Shown: positions 11,401 to 64,000 of the stretch, piece by piece
How the letters are laid out: the number at the start of each line of letters is the position of its first letter
Position numbering within the stretch: the stretch's first letter is position 1
Source: Lama guanicoe
Taxonomy: Eukaryota
Length of the DNA stretch: 64,000 nucleotides
NCBI GenBank assembly: GCA_013239625.1
Contig: MU053561.1
Location: 3,969,992 to 4,033,991 of the forward strand
Reading direction: 5' to 3'
Program-made: the position numbers and the translations under genes
Notes under the pieces: generated by a model
The model's database searches: none
Seen by the model: only the letters and a program-made list of their open reading frames with translations
Told to the model about the DNA's origin: nothing

Positions 11401-13771
11401 AAACCAATCCACTGTGTGTGGGTGGGTTGTCTGACAGCCACAAACGGCTCTGATCATTGTTGGATTCAACAAGCATTCACTGAACACCTACTGTGTGCCA
11501 GACCCTGAGCAAGGACGAGGAGAGATGGTGATAACCATGGCCGGGATCTGATAATCCAGCCCTGACAAGAGCACAAGCTCTCTGATCAGGATCATGGCCA
11601 TCTCACAGTGCCTGGCACATAGTCTGTGCTCAAAAATCTGTCTTTGGAGTGCATGTGTGTTATTTCCATGCTATAATTTACTCAAGATCCTTAAAGCTCA
11701 GGGACAGAAACAGAGCTAGTCAGGGATGGAAAGGAGCTCTTATTAAACCAACATGTGCCATCAGTATGTGACCAATCATTTGAGGGGCGGGGCATCCAGT
11801 CTTATATCCTGCTTACATCATTTTAAAATTTCCCTCTTAAACACCACATGAAAAAGAACCACAAGGGCCTCAAATCCTTTTGTCCTTCTGGGTGACGCCA
11901 CAAGGACACATCCAAAAGCTTTGGATTCAACCTTCAAATTCTGTTATTTCAAAATTTTCAACTTCATCCCTAAATTCTCAGGCAGCTATTATGTAAGGCT
12001 TAGCGGCTAGTGCTTTCAAACAAGTTTATACATGGCATGGCTGATGAACGAATTTGTCCTATTGTCTGGAAATTCCTTTGTTTCATTGATGATGATAAAT
12101 TTCCTAATGGATCACCCTGACTCTGATGAGACTTCTACAAAAAGGCCATTCGTGGTGGTCCCCGAGGCTTGCACCCACCTCCAAAGTGTGTTCCTCCACC
12201 AGTCTCTATCTGAACAACTCAGAAATGGACTAGCCTTTGCTGAGAAGTAACAAGGTCAGATCAAAGCTAAAGCTCCCTTCTCTTTCCCTTTAGCTAAAGC
12301 TGAAGTCTGGGGATTTCTTCCTACCTCCTCCTTCTCAGAGGATGCAAAAGTGGGTGAACTCGGCTATGGGAGCAAAGGTGAAGACAGAAAGAAGTGACAA
12401 CTTCAGACCAGTCTGTGTCAAGTGCCTGAGCAGGACCTCCTTTGCTCAAGTGCCCTCCACTGGGGTCAAGGGTCACCCATGGACTTATATTAGGAACCTC
12501 TGTACTTCACTAGATCCCAGGACCTGAGGGTGACCATTGCCTTAATCGCGCTGGCTTAGCTTCGTCCATAATGGGAGACTCTACCTCTCCCTCATCTGTG
12601 TCTCCCTACATGTCTTCCTCCCTTGTGGCATCAGGCACAGAGTAGGGCTCAGCATGTGATCTGTTCAAGGACGAAGTGAGGACATCTTCAGGCTCAGCAC
12701 CAGAGTGGGTGGGGGTATGGATTTTCAGAGACCCGTGAATCCCCCAGAACATTATTACAATTAATGATGCACATTTGGTGGAAATCAGACTTTACAGGTA
12801 TTTCTGGGTCTTGCTAGTATGGACCATGGGTCAGACAAGCTCCCCCAGCAGGCTCTGAATCCACAGAACCCAAGAAATCTTGGAGGGCCGGCCAGGAGAT
12901 CCCACCTCACTGAAAGTCTGGATGGTGGAGAAAAAGAAGAATTTGGCTTGGGGTGGGGCAGAAGGCTCTCTGCCTAGGTCAGTTTAGAGCCAACAGAACT
13001 CTTGCAAATTTGATGAAAGCTGGAGACCCTCAACCCAGAAAAATGCACTCATTACACACACACACATACAGTTCTGCCTCCAAGTTCAGAGTGGTCAGGG
13101 ACCCCAGGAATGAAGCTTCTGGAACAAGGGCTTTAAGTTAAGGCTTCGATTCTAGGACTTGAAGCCTAAATCCTCTGCCCCTCATTCCTGCGCTGGATTT
13201 GTCTCTGTCCCAGGGGCCTTCTAGCTGGTTCTGGCTCTCAGAGCCACAGCTCTGTGTTGGAGGAACCCCCGCACCTGCATCTCACGGAGCTACCCTGGGT
13301 GTTCTTTTCGCCTAAGGTGACGGGAGGCGTCCTGGGAGAAAAAGGTCTCTGGGCTTTTCTCCCTTGGCTGCCAGGAGCAGAAGCAGCTGAAGCCTAGGGC
13401 ACGGAGGATGGCGCCGGACAGACCCCCCCACCCCCACCTCGCCCCAGGCGCTGGCTCGAGGGAAGGGCGGGGAAGTGCGAGGAGCTCCGGGCAACTCCGC
13501 CCCACCCACAGCCTGCTCGCCCATTGGCGTCGGGGGCCAACACCCCCTCCTGGTACTCCAGAAAACCCCCAGCCAGCCGGGCTTTGAGCGCAGACCCTCC
13601 AACCCCCGTGCGTTTCCTTTGACCTCTGGAGGTTTGAACCCCTCCTGTCACGGGAAAGATCGATGTCTGGTTCCCAAGATCCCTACGGGCTGGCACCTCC
13701 GCTTGGCCAGAGCAGGTACGGGACTGGGGCCGGGGAGGGGGGTTGGAGTGGGGGAAAGGATTTGGAGTGGG

Positions 13772-13778
13772 TGACTCA
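13772..13778 (+). promoter_or_regulatory. AP-1 consensus TGACTCA in the proximal promoter (about -75)
   Basis: Perfect consensus seen in the sequence; function is inferred only. Confidence 0.55.
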
Positions 13779-13849
13779 GGAGTCCGGGAGGAGGGGCTAA
13801 GAATTCAAGAAGCCTGTGTTAGAGCAGCAGCTCGGCGCTCCGGCACAGC

Positions 13850-13882
13850 AGAGAGCGCTGGGAGCCGGAGGGGAGCGCAGCG
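13850..13882 (+). other. NGF: NGF exon 1 (non-coding; equivalent to rodent exon IB); TSS approximate
   Basis: Matches the recalled 5' end of NGF mRNA and ends at a strong donor, GCG|GTGAGT (intron starts at 13883). Confidence 0.9.
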
Positions 13883-13883
13883 G

Positions 13884-13890
13884 TGAGTCA
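13884..13890 (+). promoter_or_regulatory. AP-1 site TGAGTCA overlapping the exon 1 splice donor
   Basis: Perfect AP-1 consensus about +35 from the TSS. An AP-1 element at the exon IB/intron 1 junction is a known functional element of the rodent Ngf promoter. Confidence 0.85.
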
Positions 13891-15751
13891 GGCTGCCCCA
13901 AGCCGAGCCGGAGAGGGGCGCAGCGCGGGTACGGGCGCGGGCCGGCGTGGCTGGGCTCCCGGGGAGAGTATGCATGGATCTCGGTCTGGCTAGATCTCCG
14001 GGCACCCCCGAGGCTCCCTCGGACTGAAGTGCGGCCGTAAGCGGAGTGTCCCGAGTGGGTGCGGGAGCCTCGGCGGGCAGGCAGTCGTGGGGAGCAGCGC
14101 TCTCTCAGGTCGTGGAGTTCTCGATCTCCAGATGGCCCAAAGTCTGGGAGGCGACTCTGGCGCCTGCTGTCGCCGCACGGCGGTGCCAGGGTGCTCGAGG
14201 GCTAGAAGGGGACAGCGCACAAGTGAGAGAGATCGAACGAGCGTGGCGAGAGGGATGCGCGGGCTGCGAGCGCGCCGCGGCCGCAGGAGTGGTGGTCTGC
14301 ACCGCGGAGGGCGAGTGCGCGGCGCGCGCGGGCTGGACTGTGCGCAGAGTCCTGCGAGTGCTAAGTTGCCCCCAGATAAGGGGACAAGCGGGACAAGGGC
14401 TCTGGACCTGGTGCAGGGAATGGAATAAGGGTCTCCTGGCGCCTCCGCCTGACGCTGGAGGGCTGGGAGTTCCGAGTGAGGGCCCCAGGGGTTGATAGAG
14501 GAAGCCTGCTTGCCAAGCACCTCTACAGAGCCGCGCTGAACCGAGGTCACCAAGGCTCGGCCCTGCGTACTTGGGTCACACGCCTCACCTCCAGCTGTCT
14601 GCTGCCAGGTGTGGGAGAAGCTGACACGGAGAGGTGGGGCCGGGCTGCGCCTTGGGTCCAGGCGGCAAAGACTCAGGGAAGGGAGAGAGGACACACGGGT
14701 CAGGGAGAGGCATCTTCGAGCCATGGTAAACAAACGACTCCACTCTGATTACAACTCTCCCCCTTTTCTTTTCTTTCTTTCTTCTTCTTTTTTTTAAAAT
14801 CTCTGAGATTCTCATGGAAGGTGTTTTCTGCTTGAACTTTCTCTTCTCTAGTGACTTGAGAGATTAAAATAGAGCCTGCTTGCTAGGCTGGTTTTTCCAA
14901 GTTGTTCCAGGTTGGAAGTTGTAACAGTTTGTCGGATAATTTATGGGTGTTTCATGCATTAAAGTGTATTACAGCAAAGCCTTTGGGTGCTATGGGTATT
15001 AAAGAAAACTTAGTGCATGTTCCCAGCTGGAAACCAAAATAGGGCTCTCCTGGGTGCCTCTGCCCCCTCTGTCATCTGAGGCCAATGGAAATCCTGGAGA
15101 AAAGGCACTTGATTAATTGTCCTGGCTCCAGCCACTGGGTGCACGCACTGTCAGTGCCAGCCCCCACCTCCCCCGCCAGTGTGGTTGCATTCTCAAATTC
15201 ACAAATGGCAGTGGAGGGCCCACCAGTAACTTCTTTCCAGGATCTTCAAACTCTTGAAGCTGTCAGTTAAGTCTGCTGGAGGGGACAACCTCTCCCTCTC
15301 AAGGCAGTGGAGAAGGGCCCTGCCCTTCTCGCGCAGTGTTTACAGTTTCCTACCGAGTGTCTGAAACTTTCCCCTTCTGTAGAGCCACTGAAGAAAGGCT
15401 ACATTAGGTCTGGATGGGTCTCTTCTGTAGCAGAAGTCATATGTCAGTGTGGGCAACCCAAATGTCAATCCATTATGGGTGGTATTCCCAGCCCTTCAGA
15501 GGTGACTAGGGACTCAGGTGCGGGGAGTGAGAGTGGTCTAGGGACTGAGATGGAAATGAATGTTCCTCATACGTGGGCGGTTCTCAGGGTTTGGGGTTAA
15601 CATCACATGCTGTCACACTCCTCCCCCATGCTTTCTCCCACATTTTTATGCAGGTGGGAAAAAAGGCAGTCTTGAAGCAAAAACCATTGGGAGGTACCAC
15701 AGTCGGGAAACTAAGGTCTCTGGGGCATAAGGACACACGTTTGTTTTTGAC

Positions 15752-16099
15752 TTTTTTTTTTTTTGAAGTAGAGTTGATTTGCAATGTTGTGTTAGTTTCT
15801 GGTGATTCAGTTATACATATATATTCTTTTTTATGTTCTTCTTCATTATAGGTTATTACAAGATATTGAATGTAGTTCCCTGTGCTATACAGTAGGACTT
15901 TGTTGTTTATCTATTTTATATATAGTAGTTAGTCTCTGCAAATCCTAAACTCCTAAATTATCCCTCCCCATCTTCCCCCTTTGGTAACTAAGAGTTTGTT
16001 TTTTATTTCTGTGAGTCTCTTTCTATTTTGTAGTAAGTTCATTGGTATCACTTTTTTATTCCACATATAAGTGACATCATATGATATTTGTCTTTCTCT
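15752..16099 (-). mobile_element. L1 3'-end fragment (older subfamily)
   Basis: Poly-T followed by gaagtagagttgatttgcaatgttgtgttagtttctgg. The reverse strand encodes the ORF2 terminus EKDKYHMMSLICGI and resembles 30700-31055. Confidence 0.88.
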
Positions 16100-38078: not shown

Positions 38079-41051
38079 AACAATATACTTTCATTGTGTG
38101 TTTCATTGTAGCCGTTTGGTTTCTCCTTATTGCTCCAGCTAGACCAGTTTTATTCCTTTCTGTAATTCCTGCAAGTCCTAGCATGGCCCACCTGCATGGG
38201 ACAGGTATGCATCAAATGTGTGTCGAATTAAATTGAACAATTACTAAGTGCTAGCCACAAATTACATGGCTTAAATCCAGTTCATATCATCTACAAGAGG
38301 CACTGTGCCCAAAGGGTTTGTTCATTTTTCTGAGAGATGGTCTGAGTGTCTCATTAGAACTTAGGCAGCAACTTTGCAGAGAAGGAGCAGCACAAACGGA
38401 GCTTTGTGTGCTGGAGAAAACGGGGAGGTGCGGTCACGGCAGAACTGAGCCTCCAGAGCCAAGCTCTGGGAAAAGCAGCCGAAGCAAATGTGACCGAAGG
38501 GTTGACTGGCTATGGGCCATTAGGGTCACGGGTCTGTCTTGGAGGGGAAGAGTTTACCATATGTCCTCCACAGCACCATGTAGACCAGCCTTGGTGAGTC
38601 GGACACACCCAGATTTTTGCTCCTGTCTGATTCTGCTCACTTCTACAGGACTTGACAACTTTGTTCCCTGACTTGGGAATTGAATCCATTTGTTTGCCGT
38701 ATGATCTGGGGTCTTTCTGCAGTGTTATCCTCAGGCCCCAGACTCCCAGGTCCTGGTATAGATGAGGATGTGCTATTATGAGGCCCATTCACAGTAACCC
38801 GCTCCTTTGGCAGGAGTCCAGGTGCAGAATTCAGGGTTATCTGTTGGACTAGAACATGACCCAATGTACTAGGAATCATTTTATAAATTTATCTTAAAAG
38901 CAAAGCTACTTGCAGAAATGGATTTAGCTCTGCCTTCAACTGTATCCTCAGGCTCAAATGTTTAAATGAAATAATTCACAAAATGTGTCACTGTCTGCCT
39001 GTATTTTCTCCCGATGGCAATAGAATGTTACTCAAGTCCCCAGTTCACCATCAATTATTTTTAAACTGCTTTGTCTTTTAATAAAGGCCCTTTGGGATCT
39101 GGAAGACTTGTTTCCAACGTTGATTAGAAAAGGAGAAGCAAATGTACATTTGAAAGCTATACTAAAGTTAAAAAAAAAAGCTTTTAATAAGGAAAGAAAC
39201 TTAATGTAATAGGCATTTTTGCTTTTACATTTTGAGTGGGTTGGTGCCCATAAGTGATCCTTATCATTGGAACTATGTAGGGAAACCCACCAAAATCAAA
39301 GTAAGTGCAGATTTACAGAAAAACAAACAGCAGCTGTCCCAGATCATCTAGGGCGCTGGGGCCAGCAGTCTGTTGAGAATTTATCAAGCCCAGTAGAGCA
39401 GTTCAGGGCAAAAGACATTTAAAAAATAAAAGTACAAGCCCATCGGGAATATTAAGAAAAGACTCATTCAAATTTTTTAAAAATGTACATCCATTACAAC
39501 AGTCGAAATAGGACTCTCTAAACCAGAGCTGCAAAGAGGCCACTTAAGAGAGCTTTCTCAAGGGTGGCATAAAAAAGTGTTCTGGCCTTTCCTTCACACA
39601 GCTTGGCTTGGAAGGACAGGACTTCTTTTTCCCTCTCTCTCGAAAATCCCCAAGTCACAAGTTTATGGGCTCCATTATACTGGGTTTTAAGCATTGGTCA
39701 ATTCAAGGAACCATTTTCTTTGGATAATTTAAACCAATTATTCTCAAAAGTGAATTTCTTGGTGTATTGATTCAAAATTATGTTACCAAATCTTGATTTA
39801 AAAATGTTTCCATGATCAAATAAGATTGACCTCAGATTAGTGAATCCTTCTCCAGATTCTCAGTGCACACTGGTATATGGAAAGTTCTGATTAAAGCGAG
39901 TTGTTTCTAACCTTACAATTCATAAATGCATTTGACTGTGGAACTCTTGTTTTACCAAACCTCTTTTGAAATTCCAGGGGTGGAAAACACTGATTTAGAC
40001 ATTCCTGTGACTTCAAGGCCAAGATCAAGGTCCATTTCCTTTTGATATCATTCATTCACTTATTTAATGGACATTGATTTGACTTCCACAGGTAGCTGTC
40101 AGTGGAATGGGGGAGGTAAACATATGAACAAACATCAACAATTTCACGTGACTGAGGCTTCTCTGAACCTGTCATTGTTAACAGTCTGTACAACACAATT
40201 TAGACCCACGTTATTTACTAAACATTTCCTGTGCACTTGTCTCATCTCCTCCCCTATGTTGTTTAACCTTACTTGAGGGCAAAACTCGTGCTTTATGCTT
40301 GTCTAGTGTTCTCTCTGATACTGAGCATGGAATTGGATGTGTAGTAGGTCACCAGTGAATACGGGTTGATTGATTAAAGACTAAACTAGATGATCCCTGA
40401 GTCGTTTTTAGTTTTATAGAGTTTCTAAGAGTTTTTCTCAAATATTGGTACAACCCTATGCCTATAACACTATGGTGAACCACAAAAATACTGAGTAATT
40501 CATTAGCTCTGGTTATCCAGCGGCTGTCTTATTGCCATAGAAGTAACAAAATTAGTATCTGCTGCCCCTCCAGATAGGCAAGCCACAGCAAACCAAAGCA
40601 ATTTACTCTCTGCTTATGGACACAGTTTAAGTGTTAAAACTTAGGGATTCGACCTTATTTTTATCGGAGAACAGCCAAGTTTCTGATTTTATATGGGGGA
40701 ATCCTGAGACTTAAGTGAATGTGTAGCTATTTTTTGCAAAATGTAATACAGATTAGGGTTAGCCACAATTGGTAACACTTGGGGAGCTGTTAATTTCTTG
40801 CTGGCAATTACACTGTAAACTCCCTTCATAAATTTCAGACTTGAACTTGGCATTGTCATCCAGATTTTATGCACATTAATTTGATTTACATATGCTGAGT
40901 GGTTCCTAATCCTATGATCAGTAGACAGACAGCACCTCAGTTGCTTTATATATTTGAGAATTGCTCAGAACCACAGAAACTTTATTTCGTAAGTGAACAA
41001 AGAAGTGAATGTGGCGGGGATAAGTTACACTAGGTTCTATTCAGTTATGAC

Positions 41052-50661: not shown

Positions 50662-53600
50662 CGTGATGGAGCAGGGAAAACTGCCCTTACCTTTGGAATT
50701 TCTCATTATCCACAATGTTCTGGGTCCCTGGAGATGATGCACTCTGTGGGTCTCTTGTTAGCCCTGGAGTAAATTTCCCCAGTACAGAGTTTTGGTTTCG
50801 TTCATGATGTCATGGTCCAATAAAGCTTAAAAGAAGAAACACTAGAAGATGGAGAATGCTCTGAAGTACAATTGTATGAGAATCAAGTGCCTAGGAGGAC
50901 AGCAGGTTTTCATCTCCCCTGACCTCTCCTCCTGAGATAATGAAAGAGCTAAATGAAACCCCTTAAACTAAGCTTTAAAACGCCCATCAAATAGCCCCTC
51001 ATTACAGTTAACCAGCCGCTGACATTCTGACATTCCCCATCAGGCATATATGACACTGGGACTGGAGGGTTAAAGCCACACGCAGGAAGTAGCTCAAACA
51101 GCCCAGAGCCCCCTGACAAACACACACAGGGAAATCAGTTCTTCATCTCCAGCCCTTATCTTAGCCTCGGGTTCCCTCGGATTTGCGTGGGCTGCATGCC
51201 TGGGCAAAGCCGGGCTGTTCCCTCTTTCATGCCTGGAGTCAGATTTTCTGCATGTGAAGTGAGCAGACAAGCCAGGAAATGTCAGCTCAGAAGAGGGAGG
51301 GAGCTGTCACTCCAGGGGCTGTGCAGTGGGGCAGCATCTGACATGCCCTCAGGACTCAGTTTCCCCAGGATGTGTTTGCTGCTGGCTCCCTTGGAACCAT
51401 GTTTTCTTGGCTGCGGGGTAGTTGGGGTGCAGCTGCTTTTGCAGCGAAATTGAAGTCCAGCTGCTTCAGCAGAAGTAGTCTCATCTCATGGACACTTGCA
51501 CGAGTCAGGGTGGCCTTTTATGGGGACCTTTACATCCAAGTCCCATGGCTTGTCCCTTATCCCTCTTTAATTGAAGGACAGAATGCCTGACTTTTCAAAA
51601 GCCGGAGAACACTGCTTGTCTGTTTCGCCAAGATTTTTCCTGGGTCTTTTTCAGGGTTTAGCTTGTCTTAATTTCTCAAGTTACATCTGAATTGCATTAT
51701 AGACTTATGTGTCGTAACACTGCTTGACCTGTTGCTTGGAAAACATACCACACACTGAGAGGAAAAGGCTAGCTCAAGAAGAGCTGAAGACATTTAATCC
51801 TATAAAGCAAATAGAAGAGCGAGCTTGGATCCCGTTAGCATTCACTGGCAACGTTCTGTTTTCATTCACGTATTCCATCCCAGGTGGTCATCTTGGTCTG
51901 CAATGGGCTGGAGGTGCTGGTACTGTTGGATCTAAACTTTGATTCCAACCAACCCAAGAGTCTCCTTTTTCCCGCAATACTTCTGTCTGCTCTTAGTCCC
52001 AAGTATGGGAACAACAGCCGGGAAAGGCCCAAAGCAGAGCTGAAATGGATCTTTTCTCTTGTGGTTTAAGGATCAGCCAGTTGGAACTCAGGAGATGTTT
52101 TCTTAGGGTTGCAGAAAAGTTTGAAAAACCGTTGGATTGTCTTTGGCACTCAAATGTAGATTATAGATATATCGTTAGTATTACTAAGCTGATGGGCTAT
52201 GCTACAAGGACTGTTATTTAGTAGCACATTCTTGCAAAAATATACTGCCCTCAGCTCTGTAATGGGAGGCTGCTGTGTGTTTAGATGTCTTATCATGTCT
52301 ACCGCATTCATGTCATTGTAATTACCCAAGTTATGGAAACCCCTCTGTGGCATCGGCATTACACAGCTTGTGAATCCACAGCTCATCAATCCAGTTGGGG
52401 AAATATCATGCAGACTGTGGCCCAGAAGGCCACGCACAGTTGTAGCAAATGCTTTGATTCTGAAGCTCAAGGTCAACCAACCATGATGGTTTCTTCCTTG
52501 AGCTGCCTGACTCTCTGGGGAAATGCTGGAAAGAGTTTGTAATTTATCCCAGAAGCTCCAAAAGAGCCATTGGACCATCCCCTCTTTTAGGAAAATGCAG
52601 CAAGGCCCTTTAGAATTGTCAGTATTGAAACTTTCAGTCTAAAAGAATAGCGATTTTGCTGAACCTTAATGTCTTCCTAAGTCCTTGTTGCCAGATGCAC
52701 TGTTTTCCCATTGGATGTGCCAAAACCACCAAATAGTTAAAACACGTCAGATCGTCCCAAGATGGCCCAAACTGAATTTTTCCCCCAAAGAAGAGCTCCT
52801 AGTCAGCAAATCATGGTCATATTCCATATTAGAAAATGTCTGATTAGGCTAAAAATTAGGAAAACAGACTTTCAACACAAAAGACTTCACATTTTCTTTG
52901 TGAATAGGCTCAGAGCAAGAACTAAGAGAGAGAGGGGCGAGTTAAGGGGAAGAGTTACAGGAATGAACGTCACAGCAACAGCGCCACCAGTTATTACGAC
53001 GCCCTCAGGAACATGTTCTTAATGCCCAACATTCCTAGTGAGTTCTCCCAACTCATCTAGGAGGATGGAGGCTGCAGCTCACACCAGCTGCTCTAGCGTA
53101 TTTGATGTGGTATAAGCTACTCTTGGGACTAGCCATTGTGTCTGAGCATATGCAAGGAGTGAGTGGTCCAAGAATTCTTTCTAGTCAAGCATCCTCCAAT
53201 TTCTGGTATTAAAAATGTCAGCAAATAATCCTTGGGCATAATAATATGCTAACCATAGCTTCAATACCAAAGAATGTTGTAAGTGGCATGCAAGGAGTAA
53301 AAAGAAAACTTCACAATTGACAAATGTCAATTACATCTAGATAATTTGGGGGTGGGGTGGGGTGGGGTGGGCAGGGGAGACAGGGACAACATCCCCCAGC
53401 GACTCTGCAAGGCATAGTCTCACACCTGTTTATTGCCTACAGTGTGACCGAATCTACACTTTATATTTCCTGAGGTATATTAATTTCTTGATAATTTCTC
53501 CTAACTGCTAGCTCATCAAAGCCAGCGTCAAGTTTCCCATTCATCCTGTACAGCCGTGATTCTCAGCCCTGGCTTTTTCTTGGGGTCGTCTTGGGAGCTT

Positions 53601-56755: not shown

Positions 56756-57456
56756 AACACCTATATATATGAGACTTATAGAATTGAATGGAGAACAGAA
56801 ACCTACCATTGCTTCTAGGAACTACAATCTAAAATTGGACAGAATCTTTCTTCTCATCGTATCAGCTCCCTAGCTCCTATTCTGAACATGTGACTCTTGG
56901 CACAGTTCTCTGAGAGTCATGTCCTAGTTCTGCAAGAGCTCTTGGTATCTATCAAGTGGTCAGGTTGTCTTGTTTGCCACCATTACACATCTGGATTTTC
57001 ATCAAAGCACCAACTTGTTCTCAATTGTCAGGACTTCTTCTTCTGTATAATTTACCTTAGTTACACTGGTCCAGAGTTGGGTCTAGTACATCTACACATG
57101 TATAGTGTACAGAATAATTCTATTTTTGATGCTGGTTTAGGGGCCTGCTGAGCCGGACTCTGACGTGGGGCTAGACACACCTACATCAGCCATAGACTGT
57201 GTCCAGGCAGAAACCAGGTCCACACAGGTTCAGCCCCTGGCCTTTTCAGTAGTTGAGCTCTAGCTCCTCCTGGACCCTGAGGCTGGTAAAGTCCCAGCCC
57301 TCGGGGAAATGGGGCTTGTCCAGTTGGCACATCCCTTCCCTCCTGCTTGGGGCACAGCTATCCGTCTGCTAGAGACTGTGGGGGAAGTGCCCATCTAATG
57401 CCAGCTTTCTCCTCCCACAGAGTCCTGGCCCGGAGTCGTGCAGTCCACGGGGCTGG

Positions 57457-57501
57457 ATGGCATGCTGGACCCAAGCTCAGCTCAGCGTCCGGGCCCAATA
57501 A
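57457..57501 (+). other. uORF1 in the NGF 5'UTR (MACWTQAQLSVRAQ*)
   Basis: ATG at 57457 with G at +4 and TAA at 57499-57501; entirely within exon 2 and out of frame with NGF. Confidence 0.6.
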
Positions 57502-57544
57502 CGGCTTTTCCAAGGGAGCAGCTTTCTGTCCTGGCCACACCGAG
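57462..57544 (+). other. uORF2 in the NGF 5'UTR (MLDPSSAQRPGPITAFPREQLSVLATP...), continuing into the next exon
   Basis: ATG at 57462 with G at -3; no stop before the exon 2 donor. Confidence 0.55.
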
Positions 57545-58601
57545 GTAAGCACTGGAGGGGCATCTGCTCACCGAGGTTCCTAGTTCTAGAGCTGCCAAGA
57601 CAGCTGGAAGTGAGCCCCAGGGTGAGGATCGGCATCATTGGCTCCAGCTGCTGGTCAGTGGTGGCCCAGGTGGCTCCTCGTGACCCAGTGCATGTGGCCC
57701 TGCCAGCCCGTCTGGGAGAGCAAGCCGCCCATGCTCTCAGGCTGGCCCCATGACTTCCAGGGACATGTGGAGGGTCTGAGCCACCCACCTGTAAAGTAAC
57801 AGAACACAGGGCCCCCAACAGACGGTCAGCATCACTCAGACCCTCCACATAGCTCCTGGTCTGTCTGAGCAGGCGACCTTATAAGATTGAAGGCCTTTGA
57901 TCACTCTTTATGCCCTTGGCCATGGAGTAGAGGGTGGGGAGAGCCCCAGATCTGGGGACAGAGGCCTGGCTTGGAGTCCCACTTCCACCAGTTTACTCTT
58001 ACTGTGTCTCCTGTTTCCTTCTCTGTAAAATGGGAAGAATAAGACCTACCTCCTAGGTTTGTTGTGATGGGTAAAGAGACAGTTATGCCCAATAAATGAT
58101 AATGATGTAATTATGATCTCTCCTCACTCATTTTAAGATGTGTCTGTAAGAATTCAGACCAGTAGATTCTGTTTTCCATTCCACCCTGGAGTAGACAATG
58201 AATCCACAGGTGCCTGTACCTGCTACTGCTTTCTGGCCACATATTTCTATCATGGGCATTTTAAGTGCTTTTGAATCAAGTCTGCATGATGCCTAGAAAC
58301 CTGATAAACCAGATATAAAACAATTAAATAGCCAACTCTTCCCTTCTCTCTTGATTTATGGCTTTGGGAAGGTAAAACTTACAGTCTGTTGAATGGAATT
58401 TTTATTTTGATGTTGGAGGCTTGGAAGCACAGCCCAGGACCCATCCATTACAGTGTGCGCTGTCTCGGGCCTCTCTGCTCTAGATCAGCCGAGGCTGAGC
58501 AGTGCCAGGCGTCCACGTGCAGAGCCTGCCACTCACCAGCTGCACTGAACCTCCCCAAGGCCCATTTCTCTCCTCCATAAGGTTCAATGATTGGACTGGA
58601 T

Positions 58602-63974: not shown

Positions 63975-64000
63975 ATAATCCTCGTTTCTGTTTCATTCCA
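63975..64000 (+). other. NGF: Polypyrimidine tract and near-complete 3' splice acceptor of the NGF coding exon
   Basis: The window ends ...taatcctcgtttctgtttcattcca; the expected continuation is g|GTGCATAGCGTAATG. The distance from exon 2 (~6.5 kb) fits. The final G and the exon itself are not visible. Confidence 0.75.

Follow-up and report, generated by a model that had tools for sequence, protein, structure and literature searches.

On a modest balance of probability, exon 2 of the NGF gene is a dual-use exon which encodes part of the long precursor proNGF-A and whose conserved uORFs, placed in the leader of the short transcript, dampen translation of proNGF-B. The exon was examined in a 64,000-nucleotide stretch of the guanaco (Lama guanicoe) genome (contig MU053561.1), in the following referred to as the window. 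Repression by uORFs is a common mechanism, and that this exon also serves as coding sequence has long been known. Judged from sequence, the NGF uORFs are probably a new, deeply conserved case of this known type of repression, located in an exon of known coding role. No literature on uORFs in the NGF leader was found in searches conducted mostly outside subscription journals and uORF catalogues in supplements.

Exon structure and reading frames

NGF exon 2 spans positions 57421..57544 (124 nt) of the window and, like all features described below, lies on the forward (+) strand. It is flanked by an acceptor CAG ending at 57420 and a donor GTAAGC starting at 57545, is present only once in this genome, and serves as leader in the short transcript and as coding sequence in the long precursor. 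A first-pass annotation, made from the letters alone, had proposed potential coding use of this exon in all three frames. Its exon-level sequence observation is confirmed: the frame from 57422 gives the 41-residue peptide reported there, without a stop and in phase 0 at the exon end (57422..57544, 41 codons, the common core of the proNGF-A N-terminal extension), the exon holds two ATGs only (57457 and 57462), both out of the NGF frame, and the claimed 14-codon uORF with TAA at 57501 as well as the second uORF open to the donor are both found. Its title, in contrast, was overstated, as the uORF1 frame is shut after 57501. The sole stop triplet in exon 2 is TAA 57499-57501, and the frame from 57423 is likewise open through the whole exon.

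By itself, the open NGF frame is at chance level. Across 20,000 shuffles preserving the dinucleotide content of exon 2, it comes out open in 54%, and two frames or more do so in 59%. Taken as a whole, the pattern (open NGF frame, ATGs in both other frames, uORF2 reaching the donor without a stop) was seen in 2.6% of these shuffles; among 397 real 124-mers drawn from the window at matched GC content, its share is 3.8%. Having been defined post hoc, it constitutes weak evidence in one sequence alone.

The first NGF exon was placed at 13850..13882, with a GTGAGT donor at its 3' end and an approximate 5' end, positioned partly after the human transcript. Predicted Gulo and Marmota proteins join it to the exon-2 peptide. 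It contains neither an ATG nor an NGF-frame stop, and in the spliced leader (exon 1 ending at 13882) the NGF frame runs without a stop and without a Met. A CpG-rich region at window positions 12001-16000 surrounds exon 1, as expected for a promoter island.

The bases past 64000 were read as well, and the coding exon begins 2 nt beyond the window end, with the start sequence given in the first-pass annotation. Its acceptor and pyrimidine tract occupy 63980..64000, the exon starts at 64002 (L001:2503), and the main ATG lies at L001:2515. Translation of L001:2503-3243 gives pre-proNGF; its identity with the closest mammalian proteins named NGF, which carry PF00243, is 90-92%. The first 12 nt of this exon continue the reading frame, so that the frame from 57422 is indeed the NGF frame. 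Equally real is the TAATG overlap stated there, the last base of the uORF2 TAA being the A of the main ATG. The latter has G at -3 and T at +4, and a second Met follows two codons later in 291 of 295 stored sequences.

Just past the window, where the signal peptide ends, the coding exon also contains an in-frame internal AG (L001:2566). The upstream exon is spliced directly to this AG in five models (from lynx, deer, zebu, mole-rat and quail), and such splicing would remove the main ATG, the stop-start overlap and the signal peptide.

Geometry of the uORFs

uORF1 (57457..57501) comprises 14 codons plus TAA, and its start has T at -3 and G at +4. In the spliced RNA, its end lies 55 nt ahead of the main ATG. 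uATG2 is nested inside uORF1, 5 nt after uATG1. The exon-2 part of uORF2 (57462..57544), with G at -3 and C at +4, stays open to the donor and adds up to 31 codons in total after splicing. Both have what is asked of a regulatory uORF, namely an upstream AUG that is out of frame with the main ORF and a stop of its own.

Conservation of the start and stop signals

Conservation was judged from NGF-frame peptides, whose codons constrain the other frames, and hence refers to compatibility at the protein level, not to DNA alignment. Scans for cross-species DNA confirmed none of 197 pattern matches in metagenome contigs using the exon-2/exon-3 peptide alignment, none of 115 matches in metagenome contigs using the exon-3 protein, and none of 138 matches in viral contigs. 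Homologues were taken from 100 stored proteins having 33 or more residues ahead of the main Met; 78 of these were kept, corresponding to 41 distinct peptides. They were chosen by identity in 24 signal-free columns, leaving the signal columns unused. The 22 dropped rows comprise bird and caecilian long forms, intron read-throughs, other models and one Pelobates model. Protein databases receive only species with an open NGF frame.

Among the 41 distinct peptides, 5 of 33 columns are invariant, i.e., W13, A15, P17, N26 and V45. Four of these carry the signals of the two uORFs: W13 uATG1, A15 uATG2, N26 the stop of uORF1 (stop 1) and V45 the stop of uORF2 (stop 2). Finding four of the five invariant columns among the six signal-spelling columns corresponds to a nominal hypergeometric P of 0.0017, which is optimistic given the relatedness of the rows and the generally slow change of W, N and P in proteins. 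Column 14 is exclusively H or Y, so that xAT-G is kept, and column 27 exclusively N, K or R, so that T-AA or T-AG is kept. The first-pass annotation had named conservation of uATGs and stops as a test of its proposal; at the protein level, each of the 41 distinct peptides, which range from coelacanth to mammals, is compatible with conservation at all four signal positions.

A homologous peptide was found in placentals, wombat, frogs and coelacanth. Identity to the window over the 33 residues amounts to 26 in wombat, 12-13 in frogs and 16 in coelacanth, and in wombat, seven frog proteins and coelacanth W13 stands 33 codons ahead of the main Met. Comparing two frogs with mammals, 0 of 12 residues are identical before W13 versus 12-14 of 29 from W13 on; frog similarity thus starts at the uATG1 codon. 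Pro-domain identity of the same two frogs with mouse is of similar extent (38/96 and 41/90). The coelacanth model itself starts at W13, and a search with the frog N-terminus returned the two frog representatives only. Bird and caecilian long forms gave no alignment to the exon-2 peptide, and the Pelobates model has kept the central motif and lacks W-H-A.

Primer sequences afforded a view of the DNA itself. Seven NGF primer sets were chosen for species spread among the matches listed by a motif search, which returns matches only, and the species was taken as the study animal of each source paper. GTA-ATG is present in 7 of 7 sets (horse, pig, goat, rabbit, mouse, rat and human), and GTA accounts for only 1 of 53 Val codons in the NGF, NT-3 and BDNF coding sequences of this genome. 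The letters of uATG2 are present in the goat and human primers, those of the uORF1 stop in the pig and mouse primers. Counted by species, the primers in this material cover uATG2 in 2, stop 1 in 2, stop 2 in 7 and uATG1 in 0. uATG1, which requires a free third base, observed only in this sequence, is covered by the primers of 0 of 27 papers.

Peptide-coding use of the two uORF frames found no support. In the part belonging to uORF2 only, changes at uORF2-wobble positions relative to other changes stand at 21:19, compared with 86:87 in the signal/pro control (Fisher p = 0.86; an indirect measure using protein data only), i.e., no constraint was seen.

The long precursor and its upstream starts

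That exon 2 codes for most of the N-terminal extension of proNGF-A is established and not new. Hence, the coding potential proposed for the NGF frame holds, but was already known; the first-pass annotation had missed that it was looking at the front end of proNGF-A. The 41-codon frame found here is the homologous part of this extension and shares the frame of the main Met. Searching with the 41-mer identified 18 proteins among 26 candidates, many of them named beta-NGF, and a HMMER search gave 8 matches, comprising 7 exon-2 peptides and one repetitive, unrelated-looking protein. Primary papers on NGF precursors and transcripts are reportedly those of Edwards 1986, Selby 1987, Racke 1996, Soligo 2019 and Soligo 2020. 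The exon-2 peptide is carried by mouse isoform A (NP_038637.1, 307 aa), human X1 (296 aa, AXN77605.1) and rat X1 (293 aa), in all of which it abuts the four residues preceding the main Met. As described in the literature, the long precursor has a 66-residue tail in mouse (PMC6295934), long and short human precursors differ by 55 residues and the short transcript is translated better in human cells (PMC13057041), and the long and short forms run at 32-34 versus 25-27 kDa (PMC7188814, PMC10988682).

The starts of the long form upstream of exon 2 look unrelated among mouse, human-type, rat (with an ATG just inside the intron) and frog proteins. Donor strength was scored with general splice-donor weights. 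The probable homologue of the end of the human-type upstream coding exon is found at 51475..51503, the top match in the window for the human, beluga, chinchilla and lemur N-termini, although at low scores of 24-32. This segment has a weak donor and a frame open for just 16 codons, and lacks an in-frame ATG. A rabbit primer pair gives a length of 157 bp, which by our arithmetic fits 11 nt of a human-type upstream exon plus the 124-nt exon plus 22 nt of the next exon. A candidate alternative upstream coding exon end, as a prediction only, lies at 38778..38821, with an in-frame ATG, A at -3 and a middling donor; within the window, the start of false killer whale isoform X2 matches best here, and the segment is in frame with exon 2. 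The larger stretch 38697-38821 matches long isoforms predicted for bat and false killer whale at their starts. Neither the mouse-type upstream exon nor the frog/bird upstream exon has a convincing match anywhere in the window.

Closer to exon 2, an intron-side in-frame ATG in weak context (57398..57420) is a candidate start of the long precursor for transcripts initiated shortly before the exon. Rat X1 (293 aa) and several models of 294 aa start at the homologue of the ATG at 57398, and, in a by-eye comparison, a rat proNGF-A primer resembles the stretch upstream of exon 2. Within the exon, a near-cognate CTG at 57425..57427, in frame and with G at both -3 and +4, is a candidate non-AUG start for a 44-residue extension; the homologous codon is CTG in the rabbit primer and TTG in the mouse primer. 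This CTG is possibly the start from which a long form would arise from the ordinary transcript. The candidate in-frame starts left for a putative long form in guanaco are ATG 57398, ATG 38778 and CTG 57425.

In three long NGF models of frog, caecilian and bird (P0257, P0094 and P0060), a different upstream in-frame segment with C-E-W-L and D-W-x-A motifs is held in common. A rodent-like protein (P0034) has a Met inside the exon-2 peptide where Ala or Val is found elsewhere, which gives an extra in-frame start in one lineage.

Proposed damping and alternative readings

The two uORFs are, on their sequence, likely to act as a brake on the amount of NGF. In long transcripts with an upstream in-frame ATG, exon 2 encodes most of the proNGF-A extension. 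In the short exon 1-exon 2-exon 3 transcript it is leader, and the two nested uATGs in imperfect context would split the scanning ribosomes. The steps after initiation at the uATGs follow general scanning rules. Ribosomes initiating at uATG1 would translate 14 codons, skip uATG2 and possibly reinitiate 55 nt further on at the main ATG. Those initiating at uATG2 would translate 31 codons and stop on the main ATG; most of them would be lost or would resume at the second Met, two codons further along. The remaining ribosomes would leak through to the main ATG. The net outcome would be a conserved damper on proNGF-B synthesis in which the peptide sequences of the uORFs are irrelevant.

In favour of this damping we count the geometry, the invariance of the signal columns, the 33-codon spacing, frog and coelacanth similarity from W13 on, retention of GTA, the variation of long-form starts among lineages, the absence of the human-type start in guanaco, and the uORF repression of BDNF. 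Against it count that deep conservation is seen only at the protein level, that the stop-start Val is common to BDNF and NT-3 and provides a purine at -3, and that the short transcript is the better translated one in human cells (PMC13057041), though both forms are expected to contain exon 2. Additionally, conservation of exon 2 equals that of the pro-domain, and selection on the protein therefore explains the extension equally well.

A rival reading, rather unlikely in our judgement, is that the exon is conserved solely as proNGF-A coding sequence, with the out-of-frame ATGs and the stops as mere by-products of the G-W-H-A, N-N/K and V-M codons. The exon is annotated as coding in the long isoforms of mouse, human and rat, its frame is open and its length fixed from coelacanth to mammals, V-M is found family-wide, and proNGF-A has been described as a real 32-34 kDa variant (PMC7188814, PMC6295934). 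In 15 placentals, the exon-2 peptide reaches a conservation of 0.84 versus 0.81 for the pro-domain. The substitutions in the same placentals, however, are near neutral expectation (mean BLOSUM of -0.59 vs -0.74), although their spectrum does not differ from that of the pro-domain (p = 0.20); being near-neutral yet pro-domain-like, they neither show nor exclude protein selection. Moreover, only 11 of 369 single-base changes in exon 2 create an NGF-frame stop, so that the frame easily stays open, the upstream starts are unrelated among lineages, and the rare codon GTA is kept in 7 of 7 primer sets, all of which speaks against a purely coding role. A nucleotide-level element (splicing enhancer, binding site of an RNA-binding protein or RNA structure) fixing the sequence, with peptide and uATGs riding along, would agree with the deep differences, most of which take a single base change at codon position 1 or 2, no frame being preferred, and with a reported binding of SRSF1 close to nucleotide 31 of the short NGF transcript (PMC13057041). 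Such an element is nevertheless improbable, given that the invariant columns fall on start and stop signals, exon 2 has no RNA folding signal (z = -0.08), and an Rfam search of it yielded no credible match, the single one being at chance level (E 0.86).

Least probable of all is a coupled termination-reinitiation, in which ribosomes leaving uORF2 would restart on the overlapping ATG and feed NGF synthesis instead of dampening it. The exact stop-start overlap, GTA-ATG in all seven primer sets, and a Val before the main Met in 41 of 41 distinct homologues are in line with this idea. Exon 2, however, is without UGGGA, the sole nearby GGGA, at -43, is missing from the rat and horse primers spanning that place, and BDNF and NT-3, with other leaders, have the same overlap letters. 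Going beyond the favoured damping by the two uORFs, it can tentatively be suggested that the ancestral selected unit was a nested two-uORF stop-start module which has set NGF output since the coelacanth-tetrapod ancestor; proNGF-A would then be a lineage-variable read-through from whichever upstream start is available, possibly including CTG/TTG within the exon.

Relevance

How much NGF is present is relevant to pain, neurodegeneration and tumour innervation, and its protein level can shift while its mRNA stays constant (PMC13057041). If true, the uORF brake would offer a concrete, mutable explanation for such mRNA-independent changes and a handle for raising NGF, as uORF disruption did for BDNF (PMC12974206). 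The long precursor, with its start varying across mouse, rat, human and frogs, would also be seen in a new light.

Comparison with known systems

The TURBS motif of caliciviruses and influenza B consists of UGGGA about 40-80 nt upstream of a stop-start site. As in NGF, the stop in these systems overlaps the next start. Their upstream ORF, however, encodes a full protein, whereas that of NGF is short and lacks UGGGA 40-80 nt upstream of the overlap, the sole UGGGA being at -160. The dedicated termination-reinitiation device considered in the first-pass annotation hence found no support, with no TURBS-type UGGGA near the overlap and a T-R-ATG overlap in BDNF and NT-3 as well.

In the ATF4-type switch, the second uATG lies downstream of the stop of the first uORF. 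NGF shares with it a short uORF permitting reinitiation and a second uORF reaching the main start. The layout is nevertheless not ATF4-type, since uATG2 of NGF lies within uORF1, 5 nt past uATG1. Due to this nesting, reinitiating ribosomes cannot meet uATG2, and delayed reinitiation cannot choose between starts.

Closer relatives are found among the neurotrophin paralogues of the same genome, whose loci, recognised by their sequences, we take to be NT-3 (L012), BDNF (L013) and NT-4 (L014). NT-3 and BDNF have GTG before the main ATG, within a V-x-x-V-M motif common to both, which creates a TGA overlapping the start; a stop-start overlap is thus present in three of four paralogues (NGF, NT-3 and BDNF), NT-4 being without. 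The strongest uORF described for BDNF is a minimal start-stop, in contrast to the nested 14 and 31 codons of NGF in an exon that is also coding; PMC12974206 holds 0 mentions of NGF. BDNF shares with NGF the V-x-x-V-M start region, where a stop triplet overlaps the ATG, and AUG uORFs in its 5' UTR repress the main ORF in reporters (PMC12974206, PMC9943900).
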